64,000 nt of DNA, from NCBI RefSeq assembly GCF_046105845.1, contig NZ_CP151004.1. One strand, written 5' to 3'. The translations under genes were made by a program, and so were the position numbers. The stretch is from Escherichia coli. GTDB taxonomy: Bacteria; Pseudomonadota; Gammaproteobacteria; Enterobacterales; Enterobacteriaceae. Numbering within the stretch: position 1 is the stretch's first letter; every line of letters starts with the position of its first letter. Below the pieces are notes generated by a model. The model did no database searches and was not told where the DNA came from. It was given only the letters and a program-made list of their open reading frames with translations. Of the stretch, positions 3,325 to 34,513 are shown piece by piece.

Positions 3325-3376
3325 CCGAATTTCGATTAACGCTCAGTCTCTGACTGAGAAAACTGGAAGCATGCTA

Positions 3377-32463: not shown

Positions 32464-33621
32464 TTATTGTCCTGCGAGTTGCTGAAGGGCTGTGATGACG
32501 CGGTCGGCATCGGCGGTAGTCATATCCGGGAACAGCGGCAACGAACAGATGCGTTCGCTATTCCATTCGGTATTCGGTAACGACAGCGTGGGAAAACGCT
32601 CGCGATAATATTTTTGTGTGTGAGCGGCGCGGAAATGTAACCCGGTACCAATACCTCTTTCTTTTAACGCTTCCATCAACGCATCGCGACTGATACCACA
32701 ACGTTGTTCATCGACACGAATAATAAACAGATGCCAGGCGTGAACGTGCGGCCAGGCGGGAAGGCTTAATGGCTGAAAGGGGAGAGCTGCCAGTGCTTGC
32801 TGATATTGCTGGGCAATTTCGCGCCGACGGGTGTTGAGGTGCTCTAATTTGGCTAACTGGGTCAGGGCAATCGCGGCGTTAATATCGGTCAGATTATACT
32901 TATAGCCCGGCGTTAAGACTTCAGCTTGCGGTGCACGGCCCCAGGTTTGTCTGTCATAGGCATCGACACCCAGACCGTGAAATTTTAGCATCCGTAGCTG
33001 GCGGGCAAGGTTTTCATTATCAGTAACAATCAGGCCACCTTCCGCACAGGTAATATTTTTGATGGCGTGAAACGAAAAAATAGCGGTACCTTTTGCGCCA
33101 ATATGTCGGCCTTTGTAATACGTACCGACGGCATGGGCAGCATCTTCGATAACTGCGATGCCGTAACGTTCGCCAATGGCGCGAATGGCGTCAATATCTG
33201 CTGGCGCACCGGCATAATGCACCGGAATGATGGCTTTAGTGCGTGGCGTAATGGCTGACTCGATCGCTTCAGGCGTGACCATCAGCGTATCGTGGTCGAC
33301 ATCCACCATTACCGGCGTTGCACCCAACAAGGAAATCATATTGAGGGTTGAAACCCAGGTCAGGGAAGGCGTAATCACTTCATCGCCCTTGCCAATTTCC
33401 AACGCCATTAGCGTGATATGCATTCCGGCGGTGGCTGAATTGACCGCGATGGCATGCTGATTTCCCGTCAACTGGCAAAAGGCTTGTTCAAGCGCCTGAT
33501 TCTTCGGACCGGTTGTGATCCAACCGGATTCGAGAACCTCTTTAACTGCAGCGAGTTCCTCCACGCCCATTGCTGGTCGCGAAAAAGGCAAAAATTCTGA
33601 CATTGTTTTTCCTTCCGCCAT
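32464..33621 (-). CDS. arnB: UDP-4-amino-4-deoxy-L-arabinose aminotransferase (DegT family)
   Basis: 385 aa from [10 protein letters not shown]; PLP-lysine region [13 protein letters not shown]. Confidence 0.93.
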
Positions 33622-33701
33622 TGAATACCTGTCCACTTATATTTGCTATAAAGAGTGTTGTGTATATTTTGCCATTTGGAGCGAAATTTTAAGGATAGAA
33701 T

Positions 33702-33718
33702 ATTAACTTAACCTTAAG
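33702..33718 (-). promoter_or_regulatory. Candidate PmrA/BasR box in arnB promoter
   Basis: On the arnB sense strand reads CTTAAG-GTTAA-GTTAAT, two hexamer half-sites with 5-nt spacer; TAAAAT -10-like element follows. Confidence 0.6.
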
Positions 33719-33910
33719 AAACTAATATTAGACGTAAATATTGAAATTTTTATATTTTTTCTTATTTAGGCTTTGCATTTGGCAAAATTTTGAGGCATTT
33801 TGCCGGCATCGCAGGATTTTTAATATTACACCAACTGCTAATTATCGCCAGAAATGTCGCTCAATTTCACGGTAATTGTCTGGTTGCGCTTGTCTATAGG
33901 TGGAGTTTAC

Positions 33911-34513
33911 GTGTTAGCTTTTTGCCGCTCTTCGTTGAAGTCAAAAAAATATTTCATCATTTTACTGGCGCTCGCTGCAATTGCCGGACTGGGTACTCAT
34001 GCCGCCTGGAGTAGCAATGGTTTGCCACGTATCGACAATAAAACGCTGGCCAGACTGGCACAGCAGCATCCGGTTGTCGTTTTGTTTCGCCATGCTGAAC
34101 GTTGCGATCGTTCAACCAACCAATGCTTGTCAGATAAAACAGGTATTACGGTTAAAGGTACCCAGGATGCCCGTGAACTGGGCAACGCTTTTAGTGCTGA
34201 TATCCCTGATTTCGATCTTTATTCCAGTAATACCGTCCGGACCATTCAGTCGGCGACCTGGTTTTCAGCGGGTAAAAAGCTGACGGTAGATAAACGACTT
34301 CTTCAGTGCGGTAATGAGATTTATAGTGCAATTAAGGACTTACAAAGCAAAGCGCCTGATAAAAATATCGTTATTTTCACCCATAATCATTGCCTGACAT
34401 ATATTGCTAAAGATAAGCGTGATGCGACATTTAAACCTGATTATCTGGATGGTTTAGTCATGCATGTGGAAAAAGGCAAAGTTTATCTGGATGGGGAATT
34501 CGTTAACCACTAA
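33911..34513 (+). CDS. ais: Ais/PmrG-like LPS core heptose(II)-phosphate phosphatase (histidine phosphatase fold)
   Basis: 200 aa from GTG at 33911; signal peptide; RHAER catalytic-His motif; divergent from arnB. Confidence 0.8.

Follow-up and report, generated by a model that had tools for sequence, protein, structure and literature searches.

The 17-bp direct repeat between arnB and ais is, with a probability of roughly 0.9, the BasR (PmrA) operator of the arnBCADTEF promoter, at which arnB is activated. [quoted passage not shown] The repeat, CTTAAGGTTAAGTTAAT, is found at positions 33702-33718 on the minus strand of the analyzed window (a stretch of 64 kb of Escherichia coli DNA), which is the sense strand of arnB. 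As such the element was already known, since its exact sequence has been published and the motif had been recovered before: the same 17-mer was reported in 2023 as PmrA site of the arn promoter of enteropathogenic E. coli and addressed as a 'slight modification' of the consensus (PMC10729948), while the PmrA motif of yfbE (arnB) was earlier described to be conserved among Salmonella, E. coli and Yersinia (PMC1525208). Thus the window carries the BasR/PmrA box of the arnB promoter in its wild-type, previously described form, and its finding is correct, though not new. The arn operon provides the modification of lipid A with 4-amino-arabinose and is a main route to chromosomal polymyxin/colistin resistance. 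The arnB box is the on-switch of this operon, and since the window carries the standard allele, unchanged in more than 99% of the complete E. coli genomes, it adds nothing new on resistance. What is gained is a precise promoter annotation, comprising box, -10 hexamer, start sites and leaders, together with the confirmation that the box is far more strongly constrained than its surrounding DNA.

On the sequence level the box consists of two half-sites on the minus strand, CTTAAG at 33713-33718 and GTTAAT at 33702-33707, which are separated by the 5-bp spacer GTTAA and thus lie 11 bp apart from centre to centre. The first half-site is a palindrome, identical to its own reverse complement. Experimentally verified PmrA boxes of Salmonella comprise CTTAAG as half-site 1, 5 bp, and XTTAAT as half-site 2 (PMC3973317), and the arnB box fits this description exactly. 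The sequence-only reading of this DNA had proposed a CTTAAG-N5-GTTAAT direct repeat on the arnB sense strand with the architecture of a PmrA/BasR box, and both statements hold, as half-sites and spacer length agree with the published box. An exact pattern search delivered a single match to CTTAAG-N5-GTTAAT in the 64-kb window and none in 100 dinucleotide-preserving shuffles of it. If the stricter YTTAAK consensus is applied, the box comprises one mismatch, the G at the first base of half-site 2, where the consensus demands C or T. Matches to the looser consensus with one mismatch allowed were not enriched in the window, with six found and 2.9 expected. Consequently, the case is not built on motif counting but on how exactly the box fits, where it lies and how well it is conserved.

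The weight-matrix scan for PmrA that had been recommended along with the sequence-only reading was run as well. The matrix was derived from only the three other BasR promoters of K-12 (eptA, ugd and waaH), while arnB was left out. The arnB box ranked first in the window with 19.5 bits, followed by a runner-up at 13.9 bits. Shuffled windows (n = 50) reached a mean maximum of 14.4 bits (sd 2.1), and one of the 50 exceeded the arnB box with 24.1 bits. Thus, the weight-matrix score alone, without position and conservation, is not conclusive.

The position of the box can be related to mapped transcription start sites. Cappable-seq of K-12 MG1655 placed the primary start sites of arnB and ais at 2365854 (+) and 2365723 (-), respectively (Table 1 of PMC12987492), and the start sites of arnB, ais and ugd were found to be induced together in that study. 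We carried the start sites over by means of an alignment with K-12 (A1), the window being identical to K-12 over that stretch: it equals MG1655 base for base, beginning shortly upstream of the ais start and ending 3 nt short of the ATG at 33603. Accordingly, arnB is transcribed from 33677 on the minus strand, which places the box at -41 to -25 of this site; in K-12 the box corresponds to 2365813-2365829. The hexamer TAAAAT, read from the sequence at 33686-33691 on the minus strand, follows the box at a distance of 10 bp. It covers -14 to -9 and thus ends 9 nt short of the start, a distance near the upper limit of what is normal. A -35-like hexamer is absent from the arnB promoter, where the best candidate agrees with TTGACA in only two of six positions. 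Instead, the box, oriented toward arnB, overlaps the -35 position. In line with this, a simple sigma-70 scan revealed no -35/-10 pair at the arnB promoter, as is expected where the -35 element is missing; neither of the two mapped promoters, arnB or ais, was recovered by it, and the two matches it returned correspond to the chance level. Activator-dependent promoters are typically built in this way, with a box, a 10-bp gap and a -10 hexamer in the absence of a -35 element. The spacing, which had been named as a possible point of failure, is therefore compatible with the mapped start. As a side observation, position 33683, which lies downstream of the -10 hexamer at -6 relative to the arnB start, is a sense-strand C in the window. 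Strain EC5931 and the oligonucleotide from EPEC O125ac:H6 in PMC10729948 both have a T there, which makes it a natural polymorphism.

From this geometry and from the orthologous systems a mechanism can be envisioned. Phosphorylated BasR, a dimer of the OmpR/PhoB family, would bind head-to-tail to the two hexamers with their TTAA core. Bound at -41 to -25, it would fill the place usually taken by the -35 element, and, judged by the orthologues and the geometry, may recruit sigma-70 RNA polymerase to a promoter with a good -10 hexamer, TAAAAT, yet without -35. Transcription from 33677 into arnB would then lead to the enzymes for the attachment of 4-amino-arabinose to lipid A. This fits to the PmrA-dependent expression of pbgP (arnB) that was reported for E. 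coli (PMC3140997). For the orthologous pbgP promoter of Klebsiella, PmrA was demonstrated on the box by footprint, NMR and fluorescence, and was found to bind head-to-tail to two hexamers 5 bp apart (PMC2565834; PMC3973317). Other sites of the OmpR/PhoB family, for example PhoP boxes located over the -35 position, are likewise direct hexamer repeats with a period of 11 bp that replace the -35 element, while the half-sites differ, with a TTAA core in the arnB box and GTTTA in case of PhoP.

The same layout is found at the other BasR promoters of K-12. The boxes of eptA (CTTAAGGTTGGCTTAAT), ugd (CTTAATATTAACTTAAT) and waaH (CTTAATAGTTTCTTAAT) belong to the same regulon, share the 17-bp architecture with the arnB box, and are each followed after 10 bp by a -10-like hexamer, namely TATTCT for ugd, TAAAAC for waaH and the weaker GAGCAT for eptA. 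The ugd box spans -39 to -23 of the ugd start site. However, the arnB box differs from all three in the first base of half-site 2, which is G instead of C, and in its spacer, which holds a third copy of TTAAG.

Beyond K-12, we scanned the 300 bp upstream of arnB in 80 loci from other Enterobacterales for the pattern [CT]TTAA[GT]N5N[CT]TAA[GT]. Sense-orientation matches were detected in 62 of the 80 loci and antisense matches in two, while the control, 290,794 bases covering arnB and the sequence downstream of it, delivered no match on either strand. Nearly all sense matches are followed after 10 bp by a TAnnnT hexamer. The 18 loci without strict match stem mostly from the Citrobacter freundii group and E. 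albertii, and most of them carry CTTAAGG(A/T)TAA(A/G)TTAAC, which matches in 10 of 11 positions. Thus the half-sites, whose lack of conservation in orthologous promoters would have spoken against the box, are conserved in Escherichia, Salmonella, Citrobacter, Klebsiella, Enterobacter, Kosakonia, Erwinia, Pantoea and Dickeya. An alignment of the intergenic region of Escherichia, Citrobacter and Salmonella revealed two conserved islands, of which one is formed by the box and the other by the ais core promoter.

Two of these orthologous promoters deserve a closer comparison. The pbgP (pmrH) promoter of Salmonella enterica has the same divergent neighbor, pmrG/ais. The box of S. diarizonae, CTTAATGTTAATTTAAT, has the half-sites, the 5-bp spacer and the GTTAA in common with E. 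coli and shows two differences in 17 bp, and in both Salmonella and E. coli 98 nt separate the box from the arnB start codon. The -10 hexamer in contrast is TAGGGT in Salmonella pbgP and TAAAAT in E. coli arnB. The comparison with K-12 and Salmonella that had been suggested before hence yields an identical box in K-12, and shared half-sites and spacer in Salmonella. At the level of upstream signaling, both organisms differ as well, as PmrD links PhoPQ to PmrAB with differing effectiveness. In Klebsiella pneumoniae, the pbgP box1 CTTAATATTATCCTAAG, which our scan detected in the Klebsiella and Raoultella loci, precedes the orthologous gene, comprises CCTAAG as half-site 2 and is located about 150 nt from the start codon. 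Klebsiella pbgP furthermore possesses a PhoP box and a second promoter, reported to be absent from E. coli (PMC2565834).

Within the species, the box is more strongly constrained than the surrounding DNA. Of 5426 complete E. coli genomes, 5417 matched the 401 bp around it, most closely an O157:H7 strain with 99.8% identity. For a 45-mer with the box at its centre (33688-33732), identical copies exist in 5372 of 5414 genomes (99.2%). In contrast, neighboring 45-mers are identical in just 16-30% of the genomes, namely 1630 of 5412 for a 45-mer in the ais leader (33830-33874) and 849 of 5413 for the ais start region (33778-33822). The latter count also demonstrates that E. coli genomes vary in the ais start region, and positions 33806 and 33812, which flank the ais start, differ from K-12 in the window (columns 127 and 121 of A1). 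The box itself is identical in K-12 and O157. All intergenic differences between the window and K-12 fall into the ais leader and the surroundings of the ais start (columns 75, 94, 121 and 127 of A1), while one more is located at 33606, just before the arnB ATG. The suggestion that any sequence change in this region could alter polymyxin tolerance consequently has no object here, given that the arnB promoter is identical to that of K-12 MG1655 from box to start.

Two other readings of the arnB box have to be considered. One might argue that the repeat is a functionless chance match in AT-rich intergenic DNA. The intergenic region indeed has a GC content of 32.5% compared to 51.5% for the window, with about 2% of the same-length stretches in the window being equally AT-rich as 33622-33910. 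The lack of enrichment of one-mismatch patterns (6 vs. 2.9 expected) and the one shuffled window above the weight-matrix score point in the same direction. However, a chance match is not expected to lie on the right strand and in the right place relative to the start site, to be kept across genera, and to remain near-invariant in E. coli while its flanks vary. We regard this reading as refuted by the conservation and positional data and give it a negligible probability. A different function was put forward in PMC10729948, according to which the box is mainly used by QseB, a paralogue of PmrA, while PmrA blocks RNA polymerase and is not an activator. In that study, phosphorylated QseB shifted a 60-bp oligonucleotide containing the arnB box, and a pmrA qseC double mutant over-expressed arnB and eptA and was 16-fold more colistin resistant. 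However, in four K-12 BasR promoters and in many genera the box takes the place of the -35 element at a fixed distance of 10 bp from the -10 hexamer. Since this fixed geometry corresponds to a layout for activation and not for occlusion, the blocking model is disfavored. Furthermore, PmrA-dependent activation of pbgP was reported in E. coli, Salmonella and Klebsiella (PMC3140997; PMC2565834). The gel-shift fragment of PMC10729948 was undissected, QseB may simply bind the PmrA box, and a PmrA binding or repression assay is not reported there. Taken together, we consider a primary use of the box by QseB improbable, while cross-binding of QseB as an additional input at the arnB box, otherwise activated by BasR, is plausible.

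On the other side of the intergenic region, transcription of ais starts at 33808 on the plus strand (K-12 2365723, Cappable-seq of PMC12987492, transferred through A1). The start sites of ais and arnB are thus arranged back to back, 131 bp apart. The putative ais core promoter extends from 33772 to 33801 on the plus strand and would comprise TTTGCA (33772-33777), an 18-bp spacer and CATTTT (33796-33801). It is followed by a 5' leader of 103 nt (33808-33910) with a GGAG Shine-Dalgarno sequence before the GTG start codon at 33911. The ais (pmrG) coding sequence, at 33911-34513 on the plus strand, encodes a protein of 200 aa with a signal peptide, which is 99% identical to the annotated Ais of K-12/O157. 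Among the arnB loci examined, the divergent ais is limited to Escherichia, Salmonella and one Citrobacter locus. The control region had been delimited to 33637-33910 by the sequence-only reading. This span lies inside the arnB-ais intergenic region and its right edge is exact, as the ais GTG begins at 33911. However, its left edge was set by the longest open reading frame (GTG 33636) and not by the annotated arnB starts at 33603 or 33621.

The same AT-rich region had also been claimed to serve ais. With an ais start at 33808 in this very region, the notion of a divergent control region holds, yet no canonical box is located where it could activate ais. The only second PmrA box candidate there is a weak TTTGSC-N5-TTTAAG with three to four mismatches at -30 to -14, located over the ais spacer. 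We rejected it as activator site, the A of TTTAAG being lost in E. coli. Two further candidates were dismissed: TGGCAAAATTTTGAG near ais as a sigma-54 promoter, whose -12 element and spacing were found unfit by inspection, and the inverted repeat GGCAAAAT/ATTTTGCC (33781-33804) as a regulator site, which is not conserved in Salmonella or Citrobacter.

Alternatively, the arnB box might also control ais from about -98. This could happen through upstream contact in reverse orientation or indirectly. Indirect routes could be relief of H-NS silencing or negative supercoiling behind arnB transcription; the former is suggested by the listing of the ais/arnB intergenic region as an H-NS-associated 'promoter island' (PMC3661553). 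The start sites of ais, arnB and ugd are co-induced in the same Cappable-seq data (PMC12987492), and PMC3140997 counts pmrG (ais) among the PmrA-activated genes of E. coli. In addition, the arnB box read in reverse complement, ATTAACTTAACCTTAAG, gives the best box in ais orientation, with its centre about 98 bp upstream, and no other conserved near-consensus box is present. However, such a distance and orientation would be unusual for simple promoters of the OmpR/PhoB family, ais has a recognizable -35/-10 of its own, and no result of this study ties the box to ais transcription. We therefore consider control of ais by the arnB box as a tentative possibility, somewhat below even odds. The more specific version, in which one hexamer-palindromic BasR box drives both promoters, that of ais from about -98 and possibly by displacing H-NS, appears rather doubtful. 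A ready-made natural test of a shared box is offered by E. coli EC5931 (NZ_CP104592.1), a human blood isolate in which an IS1 is inserted inside the PmrA box (1729-2510 of its arnB locus, L086). The insertion generated a 9-bp target duplication, CTTAAGGTT. As a consequence, the full box is regenerated on the arnB side, while the ais side is left with half-site 1 alone and the IS1 in between.

Downstream of its start site, arnB is preceded by a 5' leader at 33604-33676 on the minus strand, with the Shine-Dalgarno sequence AAGGA at 33610-33614. The coding sequence, at 32464-33603 on the minus strand according to the PGAP start, is the first gene of an intact arnBCADTEF operon. Its start codon is ambiguous, as ATG 33603 is annotated by PGAP in a near-identical genome, whereas the curated K-12 annotation uses ATG 33621, located 18 nt further upstream. 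Both the ATG equivalent to 33603 and the AAGGAA located 7-9 nt ahead of it are conserved in the 80 loci. The upstream in-frame ATG in contrast is missing in most genera, and in the Citrobacter freundii group a stop follows it (ATGGCTTGA). This comparison of sequences thus favors ATG 33603 as the probable start of arnB.

Within the leader, position 33606, 3 nt before the arnB ATG (AAAAACAATG), attracts attention. The window carries a sense-strand A, while all 5415 of 5415 complete E. coli genomes carry a G, and the best match of the 45-mer 33585-33629 among complete E. coli genomes is 97.8%. E. albertii has an A at the equivalent position, as found in the window. The base either follows the Shine-Dalgarno sequence and precedes the start codon or, in the 385-aa reading of arnB, changes Ala6 to Thr.

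Besides these promoter elements, short repeats were observed in the intergenic region. The sequence ATTTTGCC occurs twice, at 33666-33673 and 33797-33804, and the 131 bp between both copies equal the distance between the two start sites. Furthermore, GCGAAATTTTAAGG (33681-33694), the reversed -10 region of arnB, resembles GCAAAATTTTGAGG (33782-33795) just upstream of the ais -10 hexamer. Both observations may be due to chance in AT-rich DNA. Rfam scans of the whole window, and of 33500-34000 at a permissive threshold, detected no RNA family in the intergenic region. The sole Rfam family above threshold in the 64-kb window is the nuoG RNA motif (RF01748), found at 3327-3369 with 50.3 bits.
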